Assembly (NCBI GenBank): GCA_001823545.1
Contig: MHUV01000002.1
Location: 1 to 57,206, forward strand
DNA from: Candidatus Yonathbacteria bacterium RIFCSPLOWO2_01_FULL_43_27
GTDB taxonomy: Bacteria > Patescibacteriota > Minisyncoccia > Phycocordibacterales > UBA1550
Reading direction: 5' to 3'
Length of the DNA stretch: 57,206 bases
Numbering within the stretch: the first letter of the stretch is position 1; each line of letters begins with the position of its first letter. Shown here one piece after another: positions 9,653 to 51,594 of this stretch. The translations under genes and the position numbers were made by a program. The notes under the pieces are model-generated. The model was given only the letters and a program-made list of their open reading frames with translations. It was not told the origin of the DNA and did not search any database.

Positions 9653-9807
9653 CTCCCTGCCTCCCTTAGAGTTTTTATATGATGTGCAATTGTCAAAGAA
9701 CGACAATTTATCCTATATATATTATAGCAAATTTATGTAAAATGTCAATAGTTCAATAAAGGTTAATGGATATTTCTTTCTTTAAGGATTTCATCAGATT
9801 ATTTGTG

Positions 9808-9887
9808 GGCACGGGGAGATTTGAACTCCCAACCCTTGCGGGATGCGCTTCTGAGACGCACGCGTATACCAATTCCGCCACGTGCCC
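9808..9887 (-). tRNA. tRNA-Leu (anticodon CAG), type II with a long variable arm
   Basis: The reverse complement reads GGGCACG-TG-GCGGAATTGGTATACGC-G-TGCGT[CTCAGAA]GCGCA-TCCCGCAAGGGTT-GGGAGTTCAAATCTCCC-CGTGCCC-A. The acceptor pairs fully. The D-arm matches bacterial tRNA-Leu. Confidence 0.8.
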
Positions 9888-10193
9888 ATATTGTATTTGT
9901 ATTGAAGAGGGAAGCGTGTCTATTTTTGTGCCGAGGAGAGGACTCGGTCAAGCGCTCGCTCGTCGTCACCACGTTTTTCGCTCTCTCCCTACAGGAGCAG
10001 TACACCTTTTGGCTCTTTTGTTTCGCCTGCTCACAAAACAGCTTAAAAGGTCTTGCGGAAGCTCCACGTATTCGCTTCCTTACCTGCTTGTGCGACCCAT
10101 CGAGCACGACGGGTACCCGCACTCGCTTTCGAGTCCTCTCCTCCGCCTACAAAATTTAGTTACGAAAAGCTACCACTTTTCGTTTCCAATTTT

Positions 10194-10236
10194 GTGCCGA
10201 GGAGAGGACTCGAACCTCCACAGGTTACCCCTTCCT
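10194..10236 (-). pseudogene. Orphan 3' portion of a Leu-type tRNA (variable arm, T-arm and acceptor 3' strand) with no contiguous 5' half
   Basis: The reverse complement reads ...GGGGTAACCTGTG-GAGGTTCGAGTCCTCT-CCTCGGC-A. It is nearly identical to the 3' part of tRNA-Leu(UAG). No matching GCCGAGG acceptor strand or valid anticodon stem lies in the adjoining 5' sequence. Confidence 0.5.
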
Positions 10237-10343
10237 AATGCCTGTTTCGCGTACGCTCAACAACGGCATTTGCGCATACGCGCACCGGATGAAAATCAAA
10301 GCAGTTTGATTTTCATTCCCGCGTCAGTTCGTCACGCGCAAAG

Positions 10344-10425
10344 TGCTGGGGAGAGGACTCGAACCTCCACAGGTTACCCCGACTGCTCCTAAGGCAGTTG
10401 CGTCTACCAATTTCGCCACCCCAGC
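10344..10425 (-). tRNA. tRNA-Leu (anticodon UAG)
   Basis: The reverse complement reads GCTGGGG-TG-GCGAAATTGGTAGACGC-A-ACTGC[CTTAGGA]GCAGT-CGGGGTAACCTGTG-GGAGGTTCGAGTCCTCT-CCCCAGC-A. Confidence 0.8.
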
Positions 10426-10437
10426 ACTTTAGGCGCG

Positions 10438-10467
10438 ACTTGCGTCTACCAATTTCGCCACCTCGGC
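10438..10467 (-). pseudogene. Orphan 5' portion of a Leu-type tRNA (acceptor 5' strand and D-arm only)
   Basis: The reverse complement reads GCCGAGG-TG-GCGAAATTGGTAGACGCAAG. The D-arm is identical over 21 nt to tRNA-Leu(UAG), then the sequences diverge. Its acceptor GCCGAGG is exactly complementary to the CCTCGGC of the 3' fragment at 10194-10236. Confidence 0.5.
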
Positions 10468-10957
10468 TTCTTCATAACAACTTACACTAAATAACAAGAA
10501 AAAGCGAGTTTTGAGATTGATCTGAATCTCGTTTAGTGACGTTTGTGGTCACAGATAATTTCCTCGCCGTCGCTCGGAAATTTCGCAGTCACAACTTTTT
10601 GCTCGACCGCCGTCTCGCAAAAGTCGCGACCCCTCCTCACTCGTTTTTCTTGCTAGAAAAACGAGTTCCGGCCTTGCGAAGCTCCATGTATTCGCTTCTC
10701 ACCTGGCTCGCTGTTTTGTTTTGCTAAACAAAACATGCTTCGCCTTGCACAAACTAAAAATCTGCCGCAGGCGCTGTTTTTCTTTACGTTTGAATTGCTA
10801 TTTTTGTGGTCACAAGTCACTAAGTCTACTCGTGCGAGTACGCACTGCGTGGACGTAAGTGCTCGCGACCCCGGCTCGTGGTTTTGTGTGCTCACAAAAC
10901 ATCACTGCGCCTTGCACAATGAGAAAATGGTGCGCAGGCACCATTTTCTTTTCATTG

Positions 10958-11030
10958 TGCACCCACCTGGACTCGAACCAGGGACCATCTCCTTAAGAGG
11001 GAGTTGCTCTACCAACTGAGCTATGGATGC
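10958..11030 (-). tRNA. tRNA-Lys (anticodon CUU)
   Basis: The reverse complement reads GCATCCA-TA-GCTCAGTTGGTAGAGC-A-ACTCC[CTCTTAA]GGAGA-TGGTC-CCTGGTTCGAGTCCAGG-TGGGTGC-A. The acceptor has one G-U pair. The anticodon stem has an A-A mismatch at 27-43. Confidence 0.7.
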
Positions 11031-11142
11031 AGACCTATATTCAAAGAGTATACACAAAAATAAAGATTTTGGAAGAGTTTGTGCTTTGAGTTTAATAATT
11101 AGAGGCAAGTAAGATTAACCTAAGTTTTTAAAATACACGAAA

Positions 11143-11205
11143 TCCGTATTAGCTCCTCGGCTCGGAAGTGAGAAAGATTACTTTCTCACTTCACTCGCTC
11201 TACGT
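11143..11205 (+). repeat. Dispersed roughly 60-nt repeat (family A), copy 1; it contains the hairpin GTGAGAAAG-atta-CTTTCTCAC
   Basis: GTATTAGCTCCTCGGCTCGGAAGTGAGAAAGATTACTTTCTCACTTCACTCGCTCTACGT. A near-identical inverted copy lies at 20281-20340. Confidence 0.8.
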
Positions 11206-11243
11206 CGCTAATAATATTGCTCGTAGTTCCTGATTTGTTTAGT

Positions 11244-11324
11244 GGGTCAGGAGGGAATCGAACCCTCAATCCTTTCGGCGGGAAATTTTAAGTTTCCTGT
11301 GTATACCATTCCACCACTGACCCT
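11244..11324 (-). tRNA. tRNA-Leu (anticodon UAA)
   Basis: The reverse complement reads GGGTCAG-TG-GTGGAATGGTATACAC-A-GGAAA[CTTAAAA]TTTCC-CGCCGAAAGGATT-GAGGGTTCGATTCCCTC-CTGACCC-A. Confidence 0.8.
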
Positions 11325-11326
11325 TT

Positions 11327-11803
11327 TTAGGATTTTTTCTTTCGATTAAGTCCTCGATGCGTTGGTTTTAAACTGTGGCAATTTGGACAAAGAATCCGAA
11401 GATTCTCTATTCTGTTGTCTGTTCTGTCCCCATTTATATGGTCAAGCTCAACTGGGATTCTACCATCAATCGACTTTTTCGCCCAGCCACATTCTTCGCA
11501 TTGTGAATTTTTTAAATTATCTTTGAAGAGTCGTCGTTTCAGCTTGTAGCTTTGGAAACGGCTATCTCTCGTAAGGATCTTATTGAGAGGTATGAGTGGC
11601 TTACCGATTCCCTTTAGTCCTTTACTCCATCCAATGCCAGTAAAGTGTTTAATATCCAGACCGTAATCTTTGACGGCATTGTTAATTTGCGCATAATTTC
11701 CTCCTGCCTCTTTTAGATTGAGTTTTTTGAGAACTTGCCGTACGCTTGTAGAGTTTTTAACAGCGACCCTCAATTGTTCTTCTGTCCAACTTCGTTTCCT
11801 CAT
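11327..11803 (-). CDS. HNH endonuclease (homing-endonuclease-like), free-standing within the tRNA island
   Basis: C-terminal ELDHINGDRTDNRIENLRILCPNCH is the classic HNH core, with an additional CEECGW zinc-finger pair. The N-terminal region (WTEEQLRVAVKNSTSVRQVLKKLNL...GGNY) looks like a small DNA-binding module. The start is placed at MRKRSW. The stop lies 3 nt from the tRNA-Leu(UAA) 3' end. Confidence 0.85.
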   Translation of the reverse strand: MRKRSWTEEQLRVAVKNSTSVRQVLKKLNLKEAGGNYAQINNAVKDYGLDIKHFTGIGWSKGLKGIGKPLIPLNKILTRDSRFQSYKLKRRLFKDNLKNSQCEECGWAKKSIDGRIPVELDHINGDRTDNRIENLRILCPNCHSLKPTHRGLNRKKKS

Positions 11804-11914
11804 GCATAAAAGTATACCATAATGGAAGGCATAGAGGAATACATGTACATAGTTGCCTACCTTTTTAATTAAGAAACTCAATTATATTGCAATTCTTTCT
11901 TGAGGCGTGGGCTC

Positions 11915-11980
11915 CTCTCGGTCACGAGTTACTAAGTGTGCTCGGGCGACTACGCCCTGTGCGCACTAAGTACTCTCGAC
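11915..11980 (+). repeat. Dispersed roughly 65-nt repeat (family R), copy 2
   Basis: GTCACGAGTTACTAAGTGTGCTCGGGCGACTACGCCCTGTGCGCACTAAGTACTCTCGACCCGGGCTCG. Its reverse complement recurs at 20641-20705 with a few substitutions. A diverged copy lies at 10806-10877. Confidence 0.8.
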
Positions 11981-12085
11981 CCGGGCTCGCTGTCGCTTTG
12001 CGACATGCTCCGCCTTTCGATTCTCGACGCAGGCAAAGCAGTTTGCCTGCTCCCACGCCAAGAAAATTCTCTAAGAATTTTCTTG

Positions 12086-12157
12086 AGGCGTGGGCGAGAA
12101 TCGAACTCGCGCATAGGGGATTTGCAGTCCCCCGCCTTACCACTTGGCCACCACGCC
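12086..12157 (-). tRNA. tRNA-Cys (anticodon GCA)
   Basis: The reverse complement reads GGCGTGG-TG-GCCAAGTGGTAAGGC-G-GGGGA[CTGCAAA]TCCCC-TATGC-GCGAGTTCGATTCTCGC-CCACGCC-T. The discriminator U73 is the Cys identity element. Confidence 0.85.
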
Positions 12158-23033: not shown

Positions 23034-24815
23034 TTATCTTGTAAATATGCTCCATACACTATCTGTCTCAATGTACCACCGATACACATTAAGGAAGCGT
23101 TCCGAGGGGATGGTGACAGATTCGAGGGAAACGCCGTTAATTTTTTGTGGTAGTAAATAGATAAATTCTGGTGCGTATAGCGGTATTGCGGGATTGTCGG
23201 TTGATGTCTCTTTAATAAAGCTTTTATAAAGTTTTAAGCGATCTTCCTCATCTTCTTCTCCGCGTGCATCCGTCAAGATGGTGTCCACACGCGTGTTGGC
23301 GTACAAGGCAATATTGAGACCAGGGTCACTTCGTTGACTTGAATGCCAGAACGGATAAGGGTCACTGTCGCGTCCGAGTACTTGTCCAAAGAAGAGCGCA
23401 TCAAACTTGCGGGGACGTACGATTGTTTCTTTAAAATCTCCGGTAGCAAATACCCGTATGTCGACAGGAACGCCTAGTTTTGCCCATGATGTTTTGAGTT
23501 CCTCAACTACTGCTCTTAGTTCAGGTGCTTCAGAAGTTGCGAGGGTAAAGCGGAGTACCAAGGTTTCTTTACTGGTTTTCTTTTGCCATACACCTTGTTG
23601 CTCGCTGAATGACCAACCTGCTTTCTGAAGAATCGTACGTGCTGTCGTGAGACGCTCTTCGAGAGGTTTTTGTTCCTTGGTTTTTTCATACCCAAGTGCA
23701 CCAGGGGGGAGGAGGGTGTCGAGAAGGACTCCGTACCCAGCAAGCGCTTTGTTAATGATTTCTTGTTTATCAATACTAAGGCCAAGTGCTTCGCGTACGG
23801 CGCTTTCCGCAAAGATAGGTGCTTCGTTTTGGTTAAAGAATACTGCAAGCACACGGGGGAGTGGAGTATGTTCTACACGGTAACCACTTTCTGAAAGTAT
23901 TTTTCCCTGCTCATGAGAAATTGAATTTATTGCATCAACGGTTCCATCTTTGAGCATTTTTACAAGGTCGTCCTCACTTTTTGCAAAAACAAATTTAATG
24001 GTGTTGACATAGGGTCTACCAAGGGCAAATTTTTTGAAAGAATTAAGCGTGTAGGAGACTGGAATTTCGTCACCGTCTTGGTTGGTTGTTTTAATAGCGT
24101 CAATCTTGTAGGGTCCCGAACCAATAGGTTCGCGGTTATATTTATTGGTATCAAAGCGATTAAAGTCAACATTTTCCCAAATGTGTTTTGGGAGTATTCC
24201 CATCGTAGTGTTTTCAAGGAAAGGGACGTAGGGTTTCTTGAGGGTAAAGAGCACAGTGAGGTCGTTTATTTTCTCAACTCCTACGCCATCCCAACTTGCA
24301 CGTTTGGGGCTTTTCATACGGCTGTCTTGTGCCGTTTTGATGGTAAAGACGATGTCGTCTGCGGTAATTTTTTCGCCATCGTGCCATTCAAGGTCTTCTT
24401 TGAGCCAAAATGTATAAGAAAGACCATCGTCTGATATTTCATAGCGCTCTGCAAGGTCAGGTACAAAATTTCCGTTTGCACCTGCGCGAAGGAGCCCTGA
24501 GTACACCAGCGCTGAAATATCGCGGTCTGCCTCTGAGCCGATTTCACCTCCTGCGAGAAGAGGATTTATGTGTGCAGGAGTGTTGAGTACTCCTTCAATA
24601 AGTGTTCCACCGTATGTTGGTACAGGAACAATGTATGATTTATTAACCCAGAGCATGAGTACAATGGTCGTCCCTACCAACACACCCATAGCGCCAAAGA
24701 AAATTTGTTTCTCTCTGTTTGAAAATGCAGCAAGCGCAAGTGTAAAACGTCCTTCGAATGGAAGAATGAATCGTTTACTGAATATTCTATTGAGTGATGA
24801 GAGAAGATTTTTCAC
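23034..24815 (-). CDS. ABC transporter substrate-binding protein, family 5 (oligopeptide/nickel type), with an N-terminal membrane anchor
   Basis: GTLIEGVLNTPAHINPLLAGGEIGSEADRDISALVYSGLL and the overall 590-aa architecture match SBP_bac_5. Confidence 0.8.
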   Translation of the reverse strand: MKNLLSSLNRIFSKRFILPFEGRFTLALAAFSNREKQIFFGAMGVLVGTTIVLMLWVNKSYIVPVPTYGGTLIEGVLNTPAHINPLLAGGEIGSEADRDISALVYSGLLRAGANGNFVPDLAERYEISDDGLSYTFWLKEDLEWHDGEKITADDIVFTIKTAQDSRMKSPKRASWDGVGVEKINDLTVLFTLKKPYVPFLENTTMGILPKHIWENVDFNRFDTNKYNREPIGSGPYKIDAIKTTNQDGDEIPVSYTLNSFKKFALGRPYVNTIKFVFAKSEDDLVKMLKDGTVDAINSISHEQGKILSESGYRVEHTPLPRVLAVFFNQNEAPIFAESAVREALGLSIDKQEIINKALAGYGVLLDTLLPPGALGYEKTKEQKPLEERLTTARTILQKAGWSFSEQQGVWQKKTSKETLVLRFTLATSEAPELRAVVEELKTSWAKLGVPVDIRVFATGDFKETIVRPRKFDALFFGQVLGRDSDPYPFWHSSQRSDPGLNIALYANTRVDTILTDARGEEDEEDRLKLYKSFIKETSTDNPAIPLYAPEFIYLLPQKINGVSLESVTIPSERFLNVYRWYIETDSVWSIFTR

Positions 24816-30329: not shown

Positions 30330-30869
30330 ATGAACGTAGAAAATTTTGCTAACCCGGAAGTAAACATTCGAGAGCTTGGTGTGTACGAAGGACAGGTTGC
30401 TGTCGATTTTGGCGCAGGGACTGGTACGTACACAATGTTGCTTGCTGAACGTGTAGGGGAGGGTGGTCGTGTGATAGCGGTTGAAGTGCAAAAAGAATTT
30501 CTTACAAATATCAAAAATGACGCTACGGCGCGCGGGTTCAAAAATATCGAAGTTATTTGGGGCGACATTGAACGTTCTCAAGGAACAAAAATTAAGGACG
30601 CTATTGCAGATGTAGCCGTTGTTTCTAACGTGCTTTTTCAAGCAGAGGATAAGGAGGGGCTTGTTCGTGAGGTAAAGCGTGTTTTAAAAACTCAAGGGAA
30701 GCTATTATTGATAGATTGGAAGGAATCTTTTGGTAACCTTGGTCCCACAGCAGACGCTGTTGTTTCAGAACGCACCGCCCTTGAGTTGTGTGAGCGCGAA
30801 GGATTTGTGGTGAAAAAAACATTTGCTGCCGGCGAGCATCATTATGGGATAGTGCTATATAAATCATAA
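30330..30869 (+). CDS. Class I SAM-dependent methyltransferase
   Basis: VAVDFGAGTGTYTMLLAERVGEGGRVIAVEV (motif I and post-I) and VVSNVLFQAE. Confidence 0.75.
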   Translation: MNVENFANPEVNIRELGVYEGQVAVDFGAGTGTYTMLLAERVGEGGRVIAVEVQKEFLTNIKNDATARGFKNIEVIWGDIERSQGTKIKDAIADVAVVSNVLFQAEDKEGLVREVKRVLKTQGKLLLIDWKESFGNLGPTADAVVSERTALELCEREGFVVKKTFAAGEHHYGIVLYKS

Positions 30870-30878
30870 GTTTAAGAT

Positions 30879-32192
30879 ATGAAATCTCCTAAATTATTTC
30901 AAATCGTGCTCATTGGTATTTTTGTAGTGTTCCTCGGTATTGGCATGCTTGCGTTTTCAGGTTATTTACCTACCCCAAGCGACCCGAAGGATGTTAACTA
31001 TGGTGAGGTGACCATGTGGGGCGTTTTACCATCGAGTGTCATGGATCCGCTCCTTTCATCGACGGGTCCAATTCGTAATGAAAAAATTATTATCAAATAT
31101 GTAGAAAAGAAAAAAGAAACGCTTGATCAGGAATTCATCGAAGCGCTTGCAAGAGGAGAGGGTCCTGACCTTATAGTACTTCCGCATTATAGTGTTGCGA
31201 AAAATCTCGACAAACTTACTATTATTCCGTTTGAGTCAGTGACGGAAAATTATTTTAAAAATACTTTTCTTGAGGAAGGAGAATTGTTCCTTCAGTCCAA
31301 GGGTACCGTAGCGCTTCCTTTTGTCATTGATCCAATTGTGATGTATTGGAATCGAGATATCTTTACGAACCTCTCTATCGTTACCCCTCCTACGAAATGG
31401 AAAGAATTTTATACCCTCGCGCCACGCGTTACCGTGCGTGATACCTCAGGAAACATTAAACAGAGTTTCGTGTCGTTTGGTGAGTACACTAATGTAAACA
31501 ATGCAAAAGATATTTTATCAATGCTCGTTTTACAATCGGGGAGCAAGATTGTTGAAGGTAATGAAGATTATATTTATTCTACGATTGGAAGATCGTCGAG
31601 CTCTGATGTTCCTCCTCCTGCGATGGGGGCAGTGCGCTTCTTTATGGAATTTTCTAAGCCAGATAAGGATTCATACTCTTGGAACCGTTCACTTCCAAAT
31701 TCACGCCGAATGTTTGAGGCGGGTAATCTTGCACTCTATTTTGGATATGCGAGTGAGTATGTGCCTATCGCACAAAAAAATCCCCACCTCAATTTCAGTG
31801 TAGCGGTGGTGCCTCAAGCAGAACAAACGACAGTAAAGAGTACTTTTGGAAAAATGGATGGCCTTGCGGTAGTGAAGGCGGGGAAGAACCAAAGTGGTGC
31901 ACTGTATGCTGCGCTCCTTCTTTCGCGCGCTGATGTACAGCAGGCTCTTGCGGAGAACATAAAACTTCCCCCTGTGCGCCGTGATCTTGTTTCTGTTCGT
32001 CCAAATGACGCCGTATCAGTTGCGTTTTATGATTCTGCGATCATTGCGCGAGGTTGGCGTGACCCATCACCAAAAGAAACTGACCAGATTTTCCGTGCGA
32101 TGGTCGAGGGTATTAGCTCAGGGAAGGTGCAAATTACCGAGGCACTCACCCTTGCACAGGGCGGTATCGATAAACTTTTACAGGGTAGGTAG
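30879..32192 (+). CDS. Extracellular solute-binding protein, family-1-like (orphan; no permease or ATPase adjacent), N-terminally anchored
   Basis: PFVIDPIVMYWNRDIFTNLSIVTPPTKWKEF aligns with the P....LyYNkDlf...G...PPkTWdEl region of SBP family 1. It has an N-terminal TM helix. Confidence 0.55.
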   Translation: MKSPKLFQIVLIGIFVVFLGIGMLAFSGYLPTPSDPKDVNYGEVTMWGVLPSSVMDPLLSSTGPIRNEKIIIKYVEKKKETLDQEFIEALARGEGPDLIVLPHYSVAKNLDKLTIIPFESVTENYFKNTFLEEGELFLQSKGTVALPFVIDPIVMYWNRDIFTNLSIVTPPTKWKEFYTLAPRVTVRDTSGNIKQSFVSFGEYTNVNNAKDILSMLVLQSGSKIVEGNEDYIYSTIGRSSSSDVPPPAMGAVRFFMEFSKPDKDSYSWNRSLPNSRRMFEAGNLALYFGYASEYVPIAQKNPHLNFSVAVVPQAEQTTVKSTFGKMDGLAVVKAGKNQSGALYAALLLSRADVQQALAENIKLPPVRRDLVSVRPNDAVSVAFYDSAIIARGWRDPSPKETDQIFRAMVEGISSGKVQITEALTLAQGGIDKLLQGR

Positions 32193-32209
32193 TACAGATC
32201 ATCATTGAT

Positions 32210-32590
32210 ATGAATAATATTTTACGAAAAACAGGAGGGGTAGTGCTTGCGAGTGGGATACTTGCTCTACCGTTGTTATCAATAGGTGCGAGTGATTTGA
32301 TTGTTTGTGGGGGTCTCGATTGTGGTTTTTATGATTTAATTAAATTGGCAAACGCTATCGTTAAGTTTCTTTTTATTGACATAGCAATTCCTCTCGTGGC
32401 GTTGGGGATTATGTATGCGGGTGCACGACTCATTATTTTTCAAAATAAAGAAAAGGAAAAAACAGCAGCAAAAGAAATGCTCACGAATATTGGATATGGT
32501 TTCGCGCTTATGCTCGGGGTATTTGTACTCGTAAAGTTTGTCCTCGCTCAGTTCCTTTCAGAGGGATTCACTACATTCCTCCTTGAATAG
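32210..32590 (+). CDS. Putative VirB2/TrbC-like pilin paralog 1
   Basis: Signal-peptide-like N-terminus, a hydrophobic helix, a charged loop (QNKEKEKTAAKEM) and a second hydrophobic helix. It is paralogous to the next four genes. Confidence 0.45.
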   Translation: MNNILRKTGGVVLASGILALPLLSIGASDLIVCGGLDCGFYDLIKLANAIVKFLFIDIAIPLVALGIMYAGARLIIFQNKEKEKTAAKEMLTNIGYGFALMLGVFVLVKFVLAQFLSEGFTTFLLE

Positions 32591-32623
32591 GAGTAGGGGC
32601 AGGGTGTATACTATTTATATTAT

Positions 32624-32959
32624 ATGAAAAAAATATTAGTGTCGCTAATTACCTTTTGTGCCGTGAGCGTTCCTGGTTCATTCGTTTTTGCTGAGGTGCT
32701 CAAAAATCCTATTAAGTACAACACATTTTCAGCGTTTGTTGCAGCAGTAACCAAGACGGCAGTTCAGGTTCTCATGCCGTTTGTTGTACTCGCATTTATT
32801 TATGCTGGGTTTTTGTTTGTGAAAGCGCAAGGAAATGATAAGACGTTAGGCGAAGCCAAGAAAGCGATGACATGGAGCGTGGTCGGAGCCCTCATTCTTT
32901 TTGGTGCATGGGGTTTTGCAGAGATGATTGGCAAAACTGTTGAGACATTTACTAAGTAA
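32624..32959 (+). CDS. Putative VirB2/TrbC-like pilin paralog 2
   Basis: MKKILVSLITFCAVSVPGSFVFA signal peptide. Helix, then loop KAQGNDKTLGEAKKAM, then helix WSVVGALILFGAWGFAEMIGKTV. Confidence 0.45.
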   Translation: MKKILVSLITFCAVSVPGSFVFAEVLKNPIKYNTFSAFVAAVTKTAVQVLMPFVVLAFIYAGFLFVKAQGNDKTLGEAKKAMTWSVVGALILFGAWGFAEMIGKTVETFTK

Positions 32960-32973
32960 CCTCATTATACTTT

Positions 32974-33396
32974 ATGAACATTGCTAAAAAAGTTTTTTCG
33001 ATAAGTTTAGTTGGGGTTCCTTCCGTTACTCTTGCGGCAGTGAATATTGGTACGCTTGATTTTAAAGGTCTTGTTGCGTATGTTCTTGAGGATTTTATTA
33101 AACCGATAACGGTAGTTATTCTTTCTTTGGCGGTAGTATATTTTCTTTGGAATATTTTTAATATAATTCGTGCGAGTAAAAAAGGGGAGGAACTTGCTGA
33201 CCTTAAAAGTAAAGCGTTGTGGGGGGTTATCGCTATTTTTGTAATGGTATCAATGTGGGGGCTCGTGAGTATTTTGGTAAACACACTTGCGCCAGGGGCA
33301 GGTATCCCTGTGGGGGGTGGTCCGGCAAACATTAACTTTAGTGGTTTTGATAATGAGGGTACGAGTACAGGAGGGGTTAAAAATTTTTTGAAGTAA
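32974..33396 (+). CDS. Putative VirB2/TrbC-like pilin paralog 3 (Gly-rich C-terminal tail)
   Basis: Signal peptide. Helix, then loop RASKKGEELADLKSKA, then helix LWGVIAIFVMVSMWGLVSILVNTLAPG. Confidence 0.45.
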   Translation: MNIAKKVFSISLVGVPSVTLAAVNIGTLDFKGLVAYVLEDFIKPITVVILSLAVVYFLWNIFNIIRASKKGEELADLKSKALWGVIAIFVMVSMWGLVSILVNTLAPGAGIPVGGGPANINFSGFDNEGTSTGGVKNFLK

Positions 33397-33493
33397 CTAT
33401 ACGGAGTCCTTGCCCTTTCGGGGTGGGTTTTATATAATTACCTAAAGACAAAATTAACGTCTGAATAATTATTAGTTAATAGTTTATACATAT

Positions 33494-33838
33494 ATGAAAA
33501 AAGTTATTGCACTTGGTTTAGCGCTTGCTCCTTCGTTTGCTTTTGCGGCAATTACAGACGTAAATAGCATTCTTAGTTTTGCTATGTCGCTCTTGAACTC
33601 AGCTACGGTGCTTATTATGGCGGCAGCGGTAGTATGGTTTCTTATTGGCGTGTTCCAGTTTATCAAAGCTGCGGGTGACGCAGCAGGAAAATCTGAGGGA
33701 CGTAACAAAATAATCTACGGTATCGTTGGTCTTGCTGTGATGGCTTCGGTATATGGTCTCGTAAATATTTTGGTTAACACCGTAGGTCCTGACAATAGAC
33801 CGATTACCCCACCTTCACTCCCCATACTTCCTCGATAA
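33494..33838 (+). CDS. Putative VirB2/TrbC-like pilin paralog 4
   Basis: MKKVIALGLALAPSFAFA signal peptide. Helix, then loop KAAGDAAGKSEGRNK, then helix IIYGIVGLAVMASVYGLVNILVNTVGPD. Confidence 0.45.
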   Translation: MKKVIALGLALAPSFAFAAITDVNSILSFAMSLLNSATVLIMAAAVVWFLIGVFQFIKAAGDAAGKSEGRNKIIYGIVGLAVMASVYGLVNILVNTVGPDNRPITPPSLPILPR

Positions 33839-33867
33839 TAGGTATTCTAAATAAATAATTTTTTACT

Positions 33868-34113
33868 GTGGACATTATTGAAAAAATCCAATCTGAAATC
33901 CTTGATCCCATCATCGTACTCCTTTTTGGTGTTGCTGTTGTTTATTTCCTGTATGGACTTTTAAAGTTTATACAGAATGCAGACAACGAAACTGCACAAA
34001 AGGAGGGTAGACAACATATGTTGTGGGGGGTAATCGGTATTTTCTTTATGATTGCGGTGTATGGAATATTGAATTTTGCTGCTAACGTTGTTGGCGCGCC
34101 ACGACCGTACTAG
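33868..34113 (+). CDS. Putative VirB2/TrbC-like pilin paralog 5 (no signal peptide, shortest)
   Basis: Helix, then loop QNADNETAQKEGRQH, then helix MLWGVIGIFFMIAVYGILNFAANVVGAP. Confidence 0.4.
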   Translation: MDIIEKIQSEILDPIIVLLFGVAVVYFLYGLLKFIQNADNETAQKEGRQHMLWGVIGIFFMIAVYGILNFAANVVGAPRPY

Positions 34114-34127
34114 AGAACGTTAGTGAG

Positions 34128-34179
34128 CTACAAACATAAAAGCGAGAATTCGTTAGAATTCTCGCTTTTATGTTTGTAG
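34128..34179. terminator. Long perfect-palindrome bidirectional terminator between the pilin array and tmk
   Basis: CTACAAACATAAAAGCGAGAATTC-gtta-GAATTCTCGCTTTTATGTTTGTAG (24-bp arms). Confidence 0.8.
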
Positions 34180-34184
34180 CGTCA

Positions 34185-47823: not shown

Positions 47824-47990
47824 GGAACCTGCGGAATGCTATATAATATATGGCATTTTGAATTAAAAGTCAATGGTAGCGTTTGTCGTTGATGGAAGGA
47901 GGAAGGGAGTAGAAAAATGTGTTTGAGGCGAGTTTTTTGATTGTTTTAGGATGGTGAATGAAAATAGAATAAATATTATGCTTTAAAAAC

Positions 47991-48102
47991 TTGACTTTTT
48001 CGTAATATTTGTTATATTGTATGTATGTGAGTGCGCGAGGGCAACCTCGGGCGATTCAACAAACGAATGTCTGCAAAAACCTCCGCGCAAGCGGAGTTTT
48101 TT
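47991..48102 (+). ncRNA. Candidate small RNA: a sigma-70-like promoter followed about 75 nt later by an intrinsic terminator, divergent from infC
   Basis: TTGACT (47991-47996), a 16-nt spacer, then TATATT (48013-48018). Then GUGAGUGCGCGAGGGCAACCUCGGGCG... ends in CTCCGC-gcaa-GCGGAG plus T6 (48081-48102). No ORF follows. Confidence 0.4.
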
Positions 48103-48254
48103 GTTTCTGTTTTTTCTTGGTATGTTTTGCTATACTCTTAATAAAGTTCCTGTGTTCTTTTGACTAGCGACTGCACTCACATATTTAGACATTTGTTGGA
48201 GTTCGCACTCGCTAGTCAAAAGAGTACGGGAAAAATATTTACATAAAGAATTAT

Positions 48255-48293
48255 AAAAAATTGCGCACAGATATCTGTGCGCAATTATTTTTT
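48255..48293. terminator. Perfect 28-bp palindrome flanked by an A-run and a T-run (bidirectional terminator)
   Basis: AAAAAATTGCGCACAGAT/ATCTGTGCGCAATTATTTTTT. Confidence 0.75.
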
Positions 48294-48414
48294 AATACGT
48301 GTACATTAAAATTATTTTTTAATTAATAAAAAATATTGAGAAATAAAATTAATTAATTTTTTATTTTTTTATTTTGTAAAAATATTTTAATAAATTTTTT
48401 TTACAAAAAAAAGT

Positions 48415-48423
48415 TATCCACAG
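48415..48423 (+). promoter_or_regulatory. Single consensus DnaA box inside a tract of about 90% AT
   Basis: TTATCCACA is an exact match to the DnaA-box consensus. The surrounding tract at 48300-48480 is almost entirely A/T. Confidence 0.3.
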
Positions 48424-48643
48424 TTTTTTTACAAAAAAGTATTGTAAATGATTTTCATATGCGTGATAATAATAGTAGATCAGTACACAGAGTATGAAAA
48501 ATATTTTCATACACGAATGATCCAATGATCAAACATGACAACACATTTTATTTTAATATATGTTGTCGGTCGAAGATTATTGTAAAAAATAATTTGCATA
48601 CAAATGTACATACATACGTGTATGTACATACGTACATAAAACA

Positions 48644-48715
48644 ATGGCAGCAAAAAAGAAGGCAAAGAAGGCAGCAAAGAAAGTAGCAAAGAAAGCAGCT
48701 AAGAAGCGCAAATAG
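48644..48715 (+). CDS. 23-codon micro-ORF encoding a Lys/Ala-only peptide (MAAKKKAKKAAKKVAKKAAKKRK), followed by a terminator
   Basis: Read directly from the sequence. A hairpin (AACCGCCC-cag-GGCGGTT plus T-run) lies at 48743-48765. There is no obvious Shine-Dalgarno. It could instead be the 5' region of an RNA. Confidence 0.3.
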   Translation: MAAKKKAKKAAKKVAKKAAKKRK

Positions 48716-48786
48716 TTTTTCAAGCACATAGTGTGCAGCAATAACCGCCCCAGGGCGGTTTTTGTTTTTTCCAGAGAAGCCTTACG

Positions 48787-51594
48787 TTGCTTGTGAAATA
48801 TGGTATACTTTATACATATATGGCACTATGGGGAGCACAACATCATGAAAGAGGGGAGCAAGGTAACTCTTTAGGGAATACAAAAAAATTTGAAACTCCC
48901 CACGAGGAGATTGCATATTTACGCGCACGTATCGAAGAACAGGAACAGGTGATGACACAAAATGGTCATACTATTGAACGACCGCATGTCGCGAAAGAAA
49001 AGATTTTAGAATATCGCGAGGAGGTTCCTGAAAAAATATTAAAGGAAACATATCAGATTAAGGCACAGGAAATAGAAGAGCGTGTACTTGGATTAGATAA
49101 AGAGCGTTCAGAAATGATTGATGAACTCGTGCGCATTATGATGGAACGTGGTATTAAAAATACACTCACCATACTTGAAAAGTTGCACAACCCTCGCCTC
49201 GAAGACGACTTCCATCGTTTTCTCGTGCAGTTTCTTTCAGACACATCGTTCACTTCAATAGTAAAAGAACGCGTACTCTTTCGTGCGCTTCGTATGCGTT
49301 TGTACGAGATCACCTTACCGCCGATTAATCAAAAAGGTGAAGCAAGAAGTTTTGCAGACCTCGTAACAGGAATGGAACAGTTTTATGCAGGAATGCTTTC
49401 CGTAGAGGCGACATCTTCTGTGTGGGGCGAAGTAAAAAATTACTTTACTCTTGAGCTCGCACTTTCAAATATTTCAAGCGAAGTGGTGTTTTATGCGGCA
49501 GTGCCTTTTGAATACAGCGACTTATTTGAAAAGCAAATACTTTCTGCATATCCAGATGCAAAAATTCGTGAGCATAAAGAAGACTACAATCCATTTAATG
49601 AAGCGGGAGTAACGCTTGCTTCTGTTGCTGAACCAGTAGGAAATCAGGTTTTTGCCATGAAGACGTTTGAAAAGTTTTCCCAGGATCCGTTAAATACACT
49701 TCTTGGTGCCTTTAGTAAGATAGAGCACGCAGGAGAGGGTGTTGCGATACAGTTTGTTATTGAGCCACAAGGAAAGGCGTTTAATGATGTCTATAAAAAT
49801 GCGAGAGAGGAAATTAAAAAAGGTATACCGGTAAAAAAAGCGCTTGAGAGTACCACGATGCGTTTTGCTACGGGTTTTGCCTCGGTAGCCAAAGAACTCA
49901 TGTTTGGTATTAAGAAGAATGAAGAACATATTGACCAAGAAGCGGTTGAGAGTATTACAGAAAAAATCTCTTCACCGGTAGTGGATACCAATATTCGCAT
50001 TGTGGTGTCGGCGGGGGATGAAGCACGCGCGACAGCACTTTTGAATGAACTTGAATCCACGTTTAATCAATTCAATAAACCACACGCTAACGGTATTAAA
50101 TGGCGTCGCCTTACGACGGGTGCAGAACTTGCAAAAACTATTTCTCAGTACTCGTTCCGTATATTTGAGAAGAATCAAAGTTTTCCGTTGAATCTTAAAG
50201 AGCTTACAACGATATTCCATTTCCCCGTAACAGAAGTATCCTCTCCTGAGCTCAAAGAATCCCGCGCGGGAGTTGCGCCAGCACCGCTCACACTTTCTTC
50301 TGAGGGTGTCGTACTTGGTGTAAATCGTTATCATAATAAAGAAACACAGGTGCATATGGGGCGCGAGGATCGCATGCGTCATTTATATGTCATTGGACAG
50401 ACGGGAACTGGGAAGACGAGCATTTTGAAAAATATGATTGTGCAGGATATCCGCAATGGTGACGGCGTCTGTTTCATTGATCCGCATGGTTCTGACATAC
50501 AGGATATTCTTGCCCTTGTGCCACCTGAACGTGCAGATGACGTCATTTATTTTGATCCTGCTGATACAGCGCGTCCTATGGGGCTCAATATGCTTGAGTA
50601 TGATAGAGAGAAGCCCGAACAAAAAACGTTTGTGGTGAACGAGATGATGAATATCTTCAATCAACTCTTTGATATGAAGGTTGGTGGTGGGCCAATGTTT
50701 GATCAGTATTTTAGAAATGCAGCAGCGCTCGTGATGGAGCATCCAGAATCTGGCTCTACGCTTCTCGAGATTACCCGTGTACTTGCGGATAAGGATTTTC
50801 GTGCAATGAAGCTTGCGCACTGTAAAAATCCTATCATCGCACAGTTTTGGACAAGCGCAGAAAAAACTACCGGAGATCAAGGGCTCGCAAATTTTGTGCC
50901 CTACATCTCGAGTAAGTTTGATAACTTTATTTCCAACGATATTATGCGTCCGATTGTGCTCCAGCAGAACTCGACGCTTAATTTTAGAAAGATTATGGAC
51001 GAGAAAAAGATTCTCCTCGTCAATCTTTCAAAAGGACGCTTGGGTGATATCAACGCCAATTTCATCGGGCTTTTGCTCGTAGGGAAAATAATGATGGCAG
51101 CTCTTTCGCGGGTAGATATGTTTGGTACGGGTACCACGCCAAAGGATTTTTATTTGTATATCGACGAATTCCAAAATGTGACGACGCCTTCTATCGCAAC
51201 TATTCTTTCCGAAGCGCGCAAGTATCGTCTCTCGCTCACCGTAGCGCACCAATTTATTGCACAACTTACCGATGAAATAAAAAATGCGGTATTTGGTAAC
51301 GTGGGTTCGATGGCGGTGTTCCGTGTTGGTCCCGATGATGCAAAATATCTCGAGAGTAAGTTTGCACCTACCTTTAGCGCTGAGGATATAACACGCCTCG
51401 ATAACTATCAAGCGTATCTGAGTCTTTTAATTAACGGTCAGCCAGGGAAGTCGTTCAATATTGCTACGTTGTCACCAGAAAAGGGTGACGCGTCTTCCGC
51501 AGAGCACATAAAAGAACTCTCTCGTTCGAAGTATGGACTTTCTCGAGAGATAGTTGAAGCGGAAATTTTTTCGCGTTTTGAGGCAGGGAAGTGA
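48787..51594 (+). CDS. VirD4/TraG-like (type IV coupling protein family) ATPase. It is soluble, with a roughly 500-aa N-terminal extension and no TM anchor.
   Basis: Walker A GQTGTGKT, then FIDPHGSD (compare the v.DPKGE motif). DVIYFDPADTARPMGLNMLE (compare the NPL motif). Walker B LYIDEFQNV. C-terminal EARKYRLSLTVAHQFIAQL resembles the TraG-D_C pattern RKyg..l....Q...QL. The start could be 48820 or 48952 (AGGTG before MTQNGH). Confidence 0.65.
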   Translation: MLVKYGILYTYMALWGAQHHERGEQGNSLGNTKKFETPHEEIAYLRARIEEQEQVMTQNGHTIERPHVAKEKILEYREEVPEKILKETYQIKAQEIEERVLGLDKERSEMIDELVRIMMERGIKNTLTILEKLHNPRLEDDFHRFLVQFLSDTSFTSIVKERVLFRALRMRLYEITLPPINQKGEARSFADLVTGMEQFYAGMLSVEATSSVWGEVKNYFTLELALSNISSEVVFYAAVPFEYSDLFEKQILSAYPDAKIREHKEDYNPFNEAGVTLASVAEPVGNQVFAMKTFEKFSQDPLNTLLGAFSKIEHAGEGVAIQFVIEPQGKAFNDVYKNAREEIKKGIPVKKALESTTMRFATGFASVAKELMFGIKKNEEHIDQEAVESITEKISSPVVDTNIRIVVSAGDEARATALLNELESTFNQFNKPHANGIKWRRLTTGAELAKTISQYSFRIFEKNQSFPLNLKELTTIFHFPVTEVSSPELKESRAGVAPAPLTLSSEGVVLGVNRYHNKETQVHMGREDRMRHLYVIGQTGTGKTSILKNMIVQDIRNGDGVCFIDPHGSDIQDILALVPPERADDVIYFDPADTARPMGLNMLEYDREKPEQKTFVVNEMMNIFNQLFDMKVGGGPMFDQYFRNAAALVMEHPESGSTLLEITRVLADKDFRAMKLAHCKNPIIAQFWTSAEKTTGDQGLANFVPYISSKFDNFISNDIMRPIVLQQNSTLNFRKIMDEKKILLVNLSKGRLGDINANFIGLLLVGKIMMAALSRVDMFGTGTTPKDFYLYIDEFQNVTTPSIATILSEARKYRLSLTVAHQFIAQLTDEIKNAVFGNVGSMAVFRVGPDDAKYLESKFAPTFSAEDITRLDNYQAYLSLLINGQPGKSFNIATLSPEKGDASSAEHIKELSRSKYGLSREIVEAEIFSRFEAGK

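Follow-up and report, generated by a model that had tools for sequence, protein, structure and literature searches.

The locus lies at 32210-34113 of the window, by which we mean the whole 57,206-nt stretch of DNA that was analysed. It comes from a metagenome-assembled genome of the Parcubacteria/Paceibacteria, probably close to Candidatus Yonathbacteria. The ORF list showed five ORFs in tandem on the + strand, with products of 126, 111, 140, 114 and 81 aa, and thus bore out the first-pass annotation, which had described five co-directional ORFs of 81-140 aa as a tandem array of VirB2/TrbC-like pilin genes. The array, its surroundings and one distant gene comprise the following features:

30330-30869, + strand: class I SAM-dependent methyltransferase, 179 aa (Pfam Methyltransf_31/11/25)
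30879-32192, + strand: membrane-anchored MalE-like (family 1) solute-binding protein (SBP), 437 aa (Pfam SBP_bac_1, SBP_bac_8)
32210-32590, + strand: pilin paralogue 1, 126 aa, with signal peptide, a Cys-x4-Cys stretch and two hydrophobic helices
32624-32959, + strand: pilin paralogue 2, 111 aa, the array member nearest to TrbC/VirB2
32974-33396, + strand: pilin paralogue 3, 140 aa, with a Gly/Pro/Ser-rich C-terminal tail
33409-33438, + strand: small hairpin and T-run overlapping a promoter-like TTGCCC-17-TATAAT, between genes 3 and 4 (consensus scan)
33494-33838, + strand: pilin paralogue 4, 114 aa, with a Pro-rich C-terminal tail
33868-34113, + strand: pilin paralogue 5, 81 aa, GTG start, leaderless
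34127-34180, no strand assigned: bidirectional intrinsic terminator between the convergent pil5 and tmk, a 25-nt perfect inverted repeat with a 4-nt loop
48787-51594, + strand: VirD4/TraG-like coupling-protein ATPase, 935 aa (PF02534 31.3, PF12696 24.5 and PF10412 22.2 bits, all above their cut-offs)

Hydropathy analysis showed that each of the five pilins has two long hydrophobic segments with a short Lys/Arg/Glu-rich loop between them. The AF2 models had the shape of a helix-turn-helix hairpin, with helices at residues 23-58 and 63-97 in the product of gene 4 and at 2-36 and 41-75 in that of gene 5. This is the arrangement of hydrophobic helix, charged loop and hydrophobic helix that had been proposed beforehand, and all four C-terminal motifs quoted with it were found in the pilin sequences. 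Pairwise identity among the five proteins was 21-38%. The first-pass annotation had also given every protein a signal-peptide-like N-terminus. This held for genes 1-4, the leaders of which were read by eye as ordinary Sec-type leaders with A-x-A-like ends, but not for gene 5 (81 aa), which is without a signal peptide and starts immediately N-terminal of its first hydrophobic helix (MDIIEKIQSEILDPIIVLLF...). Read by eye, none of the five sequences showed a class III prepilin motif, in which a short basic leader with a terminal Gly precedes F/M-T-L-I-E (Glu at +5); a type IV pilin identity was therefore rejected, as the annotation had already proposed.

Family membership was assessed with the Pfam model PF18895 (T4SS_pilin), which has 71 positions and a gathering score of 26.6 bits. 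The products of genes 1 to 5 scored 19.1, 32.1, 24.6, 28.5 and 36.6 bits, which places genes 2, 4 and 5 above the gathering score and genes 1 and 3 just under it, yet PF18895 was the top match of the latter two as well, and the matches spanned the whole model. Orthologues of gene 1 in three related loci (L011, L012 and L013) passed the cut-off with 34.2, 27.7 and 38.6 bits, and an orthologue of gene 3 (50% identical, locus L009) carries PF18895. When 33 paralogues from six genomes were compared at E <= 0.01, PF18895 was matched by 32, the NCBIfam model NF045849 (Mbov_0395 pilin-like conjugal transfer protein) by 27 and the TrbC/VirB2 model PF04956 by five. Gene 5 scored 34.6 bits against NF045849 (positions 9-78 of 80) and genes 2-4 scored 21.8-27.5 bits, all under the cut-off of 40; by these scores the pilins are relatives of the NF045849 proteins, but not equivalogs. 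The Pfam check thus gave a PF18895 match for all five proteins and upheld, in substance, their earlier assignment to a T4SS pilin family. Together, the profile matches identify the five predicted proteins as divergent paralogues of the Patescibacterial VirB2-like pilin family PF18895.

The narrower label VirB2/TrbC-like stood in so far as it denotes this family; direct likeness to the canonical VirB2 was weak. Like TrbC/VirB2 proteins (e.g., the Agrobacterium VirB2), the pilins are small and combine a signal peptide with a pair of hydrophobic helices joined by a short basic loop, and orthologues of genes 1 and 2 gave weak TrbC matches. All of these remained below the PF04956 gathering score of 27.9 bits: gene 2, with the best PF04956 score in the window, reached 12.6 bits, the orthologues at position 2 reached 21-23.6 bits (E 6e-5 to 4e-4) and the gene 1 orthologue of locus L009 reached 18.6 bits. 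The pilins also differ from TrbC/VirB2 in having a monoderm host and in showing no profile-profile similarity to the Agrobacterium-type VirB2, as the gene 4 family, when compared by hhalign with eight annotated VirB2/TrbC proteins of alphaproteobacterial plasmids, gave a probability of 0.6%, a weak negative result given the shallow VirB2 alignment. The Agrobacterium-type VirB2 sequence had first been checked against plasmid records, in which annotated virB2 matched it with 99% identity. Searched as a profile against PDB sequences, the gene 4 family retrieved no VirB2, TraA or pilin and only chance membrane matches with E > 0.2, and Foldseek yielded nothing significant for the pilins. The best structural match was a conjugative pilin from Aeropyrum pernix (PDB 8dfu), which belongs to an archaeal system and is only 8-16% identical; for so simple a fold, numerous unrelated hairpins scored nearly as high.

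A large part of bacterial diversity belongs to the Patescibacteria, whose members apparently live on other cells. Tandem arrays of VirB2-like genes have been described in this group, with 441 arrays of 2-11 genes in 383 assemblies and an identity within arrays of 25% on average and 54% at most (PMC12102498). An array was defined there as at least two PF18895/PF04956 genes, in tandem or one gene apart, with low identity (PMC12102498), and the five tandem genes of 21-38% identity found here fall within this definition. They resemble the Patescibacterial arrays in being small, co-directional genes of the PF18895/PF04956 type with low mutual identity and structurally alike products in a monoderm CPR host. 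Such arrays being published already, the locus taken on its own amounts to a known family correctly annotated. In Candidatus Southlakia epibionticum ML1, the only species tested genetically, a T4SS with an array of six pilins in its gene cluster is essential for epibiotic growth (PMC10633639; PMC12857230), and in co-cultures of Paceibacteria the T4SS pilins rank among the highest-expressed secreted genes (PMC10936435). The array analysed here differs from that of S. epibionticum in its position, since it belongs to a methyltransferase-SBP-pilin block beside gyrA and away from virB4. We found no report in the literature of an observed pilus made of PF18895 proteins, nor of a substrate of the system. 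A further likeness is that to the Mbov_0395/MMCAP2_0565 genes of Mycoplasma ICEs, the proteins behind NF045849, with which the pilins share a wall-less or monoderm host; the Mycoplasma T4SS belongs to the MPF-FATA type, and the Patescibacterial VirB4 is a relative of this type (PMC12102498). In contrast to those genes, which are carried by mobile elements, the present array lies in the core chromosome and scores below the NF045849 cut-off.

The search for T4SS machinery, recommended in the first-pass annotation, succeeded in part. The window encodes a VirD4-like ATPase, 14.7 kb downstream of the array between infC-rpmI-rplT and efp, the N-terminus of which corresponds to DUF8128 in precomputed annotation, and which is a possible partner of the pilin array. 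VirB4 and VirB6 were absent from the window, as was VirB3, in a Pfam scan of all its large ORFs, and none of the three was found in the 10 kb past its right end. Nor did any of them appear among the large ORFs up to 7 kb from the array in 80 related species, where ten unexplained large ORFs from the 80 loci were scanned with Pfam. In this respect the array is unlike the plasmid VirB2 loci used for comparison, as neither virB1, virB3 nor virB4 adjoins it. Separation of this kind has been recorded in Patescibacteria, where the pilin gene lies away from virB4 in 813 of the 1948 assemblies that contain both (∼40%; PMC12102498).

We consider that the five PF18895 paralogues are probably Patescibacterial VirB2-like pilins which form a surface pilus or conduit by means of a T4SS-type machine. 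The products of genes 1-4 would be inserted by the Sec pathway and cleaved after their AxA-like sites, while that of gene 5, with its short and acidic N-terminus, would insert as a leaderless hairpin. All five pilins would end up with both termini outside and with the Lys/Arg-rich loop in the cytoplasm, as expected from the positive-inside rule. The subunits would then be drawn from this membrane pool by a machine of the VirB4/VirB6 type, with genes in another part of the genome, and assembled as a pilus or conduit at the surface of the monoderm cell. If the filament is of the VirB2 type, its outer surface would carry the two variable parts of the mature subunit, namely its N-terminal stretch and C-terminal tail.

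The array directly follows the SBP gene, the stop codon of which is 17 nt upstream of pilin gene 1, and the methyltransferase gene ends 9 nt upstream of the SBP start. The SBP scored 54.6 bits against SBP_bac_1 (cut-off 26), and its profile search of the PDB retrieved sugar-binding SBPs, of which 4r9f_A was the best match over the full length (E 8.5e-17). In all 65 species with enough downstream sequence (65/65), 4-8 pilin-like ORFs came directly after the SBP gene, which often overlapped the first of them or was a few bases away from it. In 69 of 79 loci of related species, a methyltransferase homologue immediately preceded the SBP gene. The SBP-pilin block is usually preceded by the SAM methyltransferase and by gyrA, which is thus also part of the conserved neighbourhood. 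One relative encodes a subtilase fused to a pilin domain directly after the SBP gene. Genes for an ABC permease or ATPase were found beside the SBP gene neither here nor in the related loci inspected. The N-terminal anchor of the SBP has a conserved FQ..F..G..F pattern, and the conservation of these residues suggests that the membrane anchor may make a specific helix contact. A class III signal on the SBP was considered and rejected, as no Gly or Ala precedes the conserved FQ. The literature contained no earlier description that we could find of a methyltransferase-SBP-pilin operon; the position of the array, always behind the gene for a sugar-binding protein, is apparently a new detail.

Gene order of this kind may also be read in another way, namely that the pilins are not filament subunits, but stay in the membrane and form together with the SBP a surface or uptake module independent of any T4SS, be it bindosome-like or an unconventional importer. 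The invariable and close linkage to the SBP gene, the conserved anchor residues and the absence both of ABC permease and ATPase genes beside the SBP gene and of virB4 within 7-10 kb at every locus are consistent with such a module, and the subtilase fusion indicates that a pilin domain can anchor a surface enzyme in the membrane. We nevertheless regard it as unlikely, because the PF18895 family is named and used as T4SS pilin, the pilin gene is near virB4 in 1135 of the 1948 Patescibacteria assemblies having both (PMC12102498), and it was a conjugative pilin that matched best in structure. Moreover, gene order does not demonstrate physical interaction, and gyrA is equally part of the conserved neighbourhood.

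With the five proteins taken as T4SS-type pilins, the presumably co-transcribed sugar-type SBP could act as their cell-surface partner in the recognition or capture of host glycans, which is the least supported step of the proposed mechanism. In the Sulfolobus bindosome (Bas system), sugar-binding proteins are assembled at the cell surface with small pilin-like proteins, with signal peptides like those of type IV pilins and with the ATPase of a type IV pilus. The present locus is similar by analogy only, in that the gene for a sugar-type binding protein stands together with those for several small membrane proteins resembling pilins; it differs in that the class III signal was, by eye, absent from both the pilins and the SBP. 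Tentatively, the methyltransferase, SBP and 4-8 pilins might constitute a dedicated operon of the Paceibacteria, of which the pilin array would be one half and not a stray part of the T4SS, and that builds a surface structure presenting or feeding a carbohydrate-binding protein and, as part of the same tentative proposal, might be the secretion-pilin counterpart of the archaeal bindosome, recognising or harvesting the envelope glycans of the host.

The evolution of the array was examined through its orthologues. Each array position had its own orthologue in distant genomes that are only 34-56% identical, so that the array is evidently old, with paralogues that keep positional orthologues across distant genomes. 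Compared with a relative 79-94% identical, dN/dS of the five pilin genes was 0.03-0.15 (gene 1, 0.03; gene 2, 0.09; gene 3, 0.075) and that of the neighbouring tmk 0.04; the values were obtained from two more distant relatives and are rough, since dS was ∼0.5-1.5 and hence near saturation. All five pilin genes are under purifying selection, and this, together with the retention of the array in 65 species, indicates that they are real genes and not chance ORFs. Six contigs, from five samples and from 23 contigs bearing an identical gene 4, were 100% identical over the five genes. The second helix was the most conserved region of the pilins, and the mature N-terminal stretch and the C-terminal tail were the most variable. 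The last gene of the array was short in 65/65 species (median 89 aa), and the N-termini that were inspected were mostly leaderless.

Close to the idea of a diversified surface filament in the first-pass annotation is the reading of the array as a set of interchangeable surface variants serving antigenic or host-range variation, as has been proposed for the VirB2 paralogues of Bartonella and Anaplasma. In both of these a T4SS pilin gene has likewise been amplified in tandem and has diverged, and the VirB2 paralogues are thought to serve antigenic variation, a possibility which the survey of arrays also raised for Patescibacteria (PMC12102498). The low identity within the array and the variability of the termini, which are predicted to be surface-exposed, would agree with this. 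However, unlike those of Bartonella and Anaplasma, the copies here are ancient, with orthologues at matching positions, and purifying selection acts on them; their dN/dS resembles that of a housekeeping neighbour, the contigs compared are identical and the special form of the last gene is fixed in 65 species. These observations indicate fixed, distinct roles and not turnover, and make a set of interchangeable variants very unlikely. They lend no support to 'diversified' in the sense of ongoing diversifying selection, and the loop, for which such selection had been suggested as the object of a paralogue alignment, varies less than the two terminal regions of the mature protein. As each paralogue is separately conserved, distinct and non-redundant structural roles (e.g., major, minor, base and tip subunits) would be the most likely explanation for the five pilins.

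That the genes encode generic two-helix membrane proteins (holin-like or other) unrelated to secretion, with a Pfam match due to hydrophobic composition, would accord with the modest Pfam scores (19-37 bits), the weak matches to many unrelated membrane families and the negative hhalign result against VirB2, but is scarcely credible given that PF18895 tops the matches of every paralogue and of 32/33 relatives over the full 71-position model, that the independent NCBIfam conjugal pilin-like model matches 27/33, that phage genes are absent nearby, on which ground a holin identity was rejected, and that the proteins are conserved in the core genome across a whole bacterial class.

Besides the arrays within T4SS clusters, the locus represents a second and very widespread arrangement, found in at least 65 species of Paceibacteria, in which 4-8 pilins are encoded in a fixed order, with a short and usually leaderless last member, and in which the pilin set is tied to a sugar-type binding protein and not to virB4. 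The fixed pilin set favours a heteromeric structure, in which each subunit has a set role, over antigenic variation. Candidates for the cargo or contacts of the filament are the SBP, the variable termini and the subtilase-pilin fusion of the one relative.

Two intergenic elements were observed. Between genes 3 and 4, a terminator-like hairpin (33409-33427) overlaps the promoter-like site (33410-33438). Its stability was no better than that of shuffled sequence (z = 0.42), and 33409-33438 is therefore only a weak candidate for an internal transcript boundary. The long palindromic terminator that had been noted at the end of the array was substantiated by its inverted repeat and by its folding energy (34127-34180; -46 kcal/mol, z = -13.6 relative to shuffles). 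Its core stem, GCGAGAATTC / GAATTCTCGC, encloses the loop GTTA and is flanked by A-rich and T-rich tracts. The core is retained in the related locus L024, and in L026 a different palindrome with A and T tracts occupies the same place.

The five co-directional ORFs reported by the first-pass annotation were borne out by the ORF listing, with all five on the + strand:

32210-32590, + strand, gene 1, 126 aa
32624-32959, + strand, gene 2, 111 aa
32974-33396, + strand, gene 3, 140 aa
33494-33838, + strand, gene 4, 114 aa
33868-34113, + strand, gene 5, 81 aa, GTG start

Each protein had the described two-helix architecture, with a Lys/Arg/Glu-rich loop of 13-16 residues between two long hydrophobic segments, and the four motifs quoted earlier were found in the protein sequences. 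A signal peptide had been ascribed to every protein, and this held for genes 1-4. Their N-termini began with basic residues, continued into a hydrophobic core and closed on an A-x-A-like sequence (SIGAS, VFA, LAA and AFA), and the leaders, judged by eye, are read as Sec signal peptides. Gene 5 was leaderless and started with MDIIEKIQSEILDP directly before its first helix, so the claim was wrong for one of the five; otherwise the original observation as a whole was correct. As had been stated, the class III prepilin motif was absent from all five protein sequences. The AlphaFold2 models of genes 4 and 5 were helix-turn-helix hairpins (pLDDT 72 and 88.8, respectively). Among the ORFs of the window, these five alone were matched by a family-derived profile. 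In gene 1, two Cys residues were located just ahead of the first helix (residues 29-38, 32294-32323), and the pattern C-x(2-14)-C-x-F occurred in the position-1 pilins of 29 of 65 species; this pair could be part of a disulphide-closed surface loop. No GGAGG-type Shine-Dalgarno sequence was visible in the 25 nt preceding any of the five starts (32185-32209, 32599-32623, 32949-32973, 33469-33493 and 33843-33867), and these stretches were AT-rich.

The assignment to the T4SS pilins was supported at the family level. PF18895 (T4SS_pilin) was the top Pfam match for all five proteins, with 19.1, 32.1, 24.6, 28.5 and 36.6 bits for genes 1 to 5 (gathering score 26.6 bits), and it was matched by 32 of the 33 paralogues collected from six genomes. 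TrbC/VirB2 (PF04956) was also matched by 5 of the 33 at E <= 0.01; orthologues of gene 2 scored 21-23.6 bits and an orthologue of gene 1 scored 18.6 bits, all under the cut-off of 27.9. An NCBIfam model for a pilin-like conjugal protein of Mycoplasma ICEs was matched by 27 of the 33 paralogues, and gene 5 reached 34.6 bits against it (cut-off 40). Direct comparison with canonical VirB2 was negative: a search of PDB sequences with the gene 4 family profile returned no VirB2 and no TraA, hhalign against eight annotated plasmid VirB2/TrbC proteins gave a probability of 0.6%, and Foldseek gave no significant structural match. The family was large, with 78,885 cluster representatives at E <= 0.001 among 1.84 billion proteins. 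The best matches in the representative library (P0173-P0318) were single polypeptides of up to 1775 aa with 2-16 tandem pilin domains, which could be genuine fusions, or else arrays that the gene caller joined, for example under an alternative genetic code.

Pairwise identity within the array was 21-38%, and the best cross-genome match of each gene was usually the gene at the same position. Gene 1 matched position 1 in the related loci L009, L011 and L012 best, and in four of the other five genomes gene 2 did so for position 2; the best matches were in L008, L009 and L013 for gene 4, and in L008 and L009 for gene 5. The duplications are therefore older than the split of these lineages. Compared with a relative with 79-94% identical proteins, dN/dS was 0.03-0.15 across the five genes and 0.04 for the convergent housekeeping neighbor tmk, values that are rough as dS was near saturation. 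Within the gene 4 family, variability was highest in the mature N-terminal stretch and the C-terminal tail and intermediate in the loop, and the second helix was most conserved. Given these values and this pattern, ongoing diversifying selection, in the loop especially, was unsupported.

Directly upstream of the array was a gene for a 437-aa SBP_bac_1 family solute-binding protein (SBP) with an N-terminal membrane anchor, which resembled MalE-type sugar-binding proteins most. No permease or ATPase gene adjoined it, and it was preceded by a small SAM methyltransferase gene. The order gyrA, methyltransferase, SBP, pilin array was seen in every distant relative examined, and the downstream flank of the array was variable among related loci. 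An SBP profile scan with one genome per species gave at least 595 matches, of which the best 80 loci were analyzed. Among these 80, the SBP gene was followed directly by 4-8 same-strand pilin-like ORFs (mode five) at all 65 loci with at least 3.3 kb downstream, and the methyltransferase was directly 5' of the SBP gene at 69 of 79. The last pilin gene in this best-80 set was always short (median 89 aa vs 118-141 for the others). The last-pilin N-termini inspected were mostly leaderless, of the type M-x-I-I-x-K-I-x-x-x-I-L-x-P, and some more distant ones had a short leader with an A-Y-A end. At L065:4722-6347, in one MAG of the Patescibacteria (UBA2135), the gene immediately following that for the SBP encoded a 541-aa subtilase (Peptidase_S8) with a C-terminal T4SS_pilin domain, showing that the pilin hairpin can carry a large extracellular domain. 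The SBP anchor pattern FQ..F..G..F was conserved; within residues 1-27 (30879-30960), F7, Q8, F15, G22 and F26 were each shared by at least 80% of 78 homologues. A simple signal anchor does not usually show such conservation, which may point to a specific contact made by the helix. Assignment of the anchor as a class III or lipoprotein signal was rejected.

The claimed palindromic terminator at the array end was confirmed as a perfect 25-nt inverted repeat with a 4-nt loop (34127-34180), 13 nt past the gene 5 stop and 4 nt ahead of the convergent tmk stop. Its fold had -46 kcal/mol (z = -13.6 vs shuffles), and its core, GCGAGAATTC-GTTA-GAATTCTCGC, was bordered by A-rich sequence on one side and by T-rich sequence on the other, as in a bidirectional intrinsic terminator. 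The core was retained in the relative L024, and at the same site L026, the closest species representative, had another palindrome, again with A and T tracts, so the element is kept by function and not by sequence. The stretch between genes 3 and 4 contained a promoter-like site and a small hairpin with its T-run; the stability of this hairpin was no greater than that of shuffled sequence.

The best-supported reading is that the array encodes five structurally distinct VirB2-like subunits of a Patescibacterial T4SS-related surface apparatus, for which the family, fold, topology features, selection and linkage were observed here. Following the VirB2 paradigm and the cited papers, the pilins would insert into the membrane with the loop inside and both termini outside, and would be assembled into a filament by a VirB4/VirB6 machine encoded elsewhere. 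The main weakness of this reading is that no VirB4, VirB6 or VirB3 was found in the window, where housekeeping genes were present throughout; VirB4 was likewise not found among the large ORFs of the best 80 SBP-matched loci. In the chief rival reading, the SBP would constitute a module of its own together with the small proteins.

Pilin arrays are already published for Patescibacteria, and the array thus adds another case of a known class. A series of predicted, essential pilins is located within the T4SS cluster of Southlakia epibionticum (Wang et al., 2023; PMC10633639). When 3,035 genomes were searched with PF04956 and PF18895, 383 assemblies carried 441 arrays in total, with 2-11 pilin genes each and a mean identity of 25% (Quinonero-Coronel et al., 2025; PMC12102498). 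According to a 2025 review, VirB2 is absent from monoderm systems with these arrays as the sole exception (PMC12857230). Among the secreted genes of Paceibacteria in co-culture, those for T4SS pilins ranked with the most highly expressed (PMC10936435). No description of the SBP-pilin linkage or of the methyltransferase-SBP-pilin block (30330-34113) was found in the literature searched, and the conserved SBP-pilin operon of Paceibacteria is, modestly, a new observation worth following. Contigs of two MAGs, GCA_000997715.1 and GCA_001825055.1, and several aquifer metagenome assemblies encoded an identical gene 4 protein, and the right part of the window was also present on a 168-kb contig of GCA_001825065.1. 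Homologues carried the names Minisyncoccia, Taylorbacteria, Zambryskibacteria and Nomurabacteria, and for the SBP the nearest relatives with a name were from Candidatus Yonathbacteria (55-57% identity). The genome belongs to the Parcubacteria/Paceibacteria.

The window also encoded a 935-aa VirD4/TraG-like ATPase (48787-51594). This coupling-protein homologue had an N-terminal region of ~500 residues annotated as DUF8128 but lacked an obvious transmembrane start, and its gene stood alone between infC-rpmI-rplT and efp. Nearly all Patescibacteria have VirD4-like homologues, which mostly lie apart from virB4, and that of S. epibionticum is not essential (PMC12102498). The ~960 bases upstream of the gene (47824-48786) contained no ORF of at least 60 aa apart from a single short antisense one, and gave no Rfam match at the gathering threshold. 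A second orphan solute-binding protein gene (SBP_bac_5, 593 aa, 23034-24815, - strand) lay between RNase J and secG with no adjoining transporter genes, and five tRNA genes (three Leu, Lys and Cys) were clustered at 9805-12157 on the - strand. Beyond the right end of the window (L106:1-9617), genes for a 1087-aa protein without a Pfam match, a Y1 transposase and a 1360-aa Bact_surface_Ig-like protein were located beside ftsK and are candidate surface or host-interaction genes.
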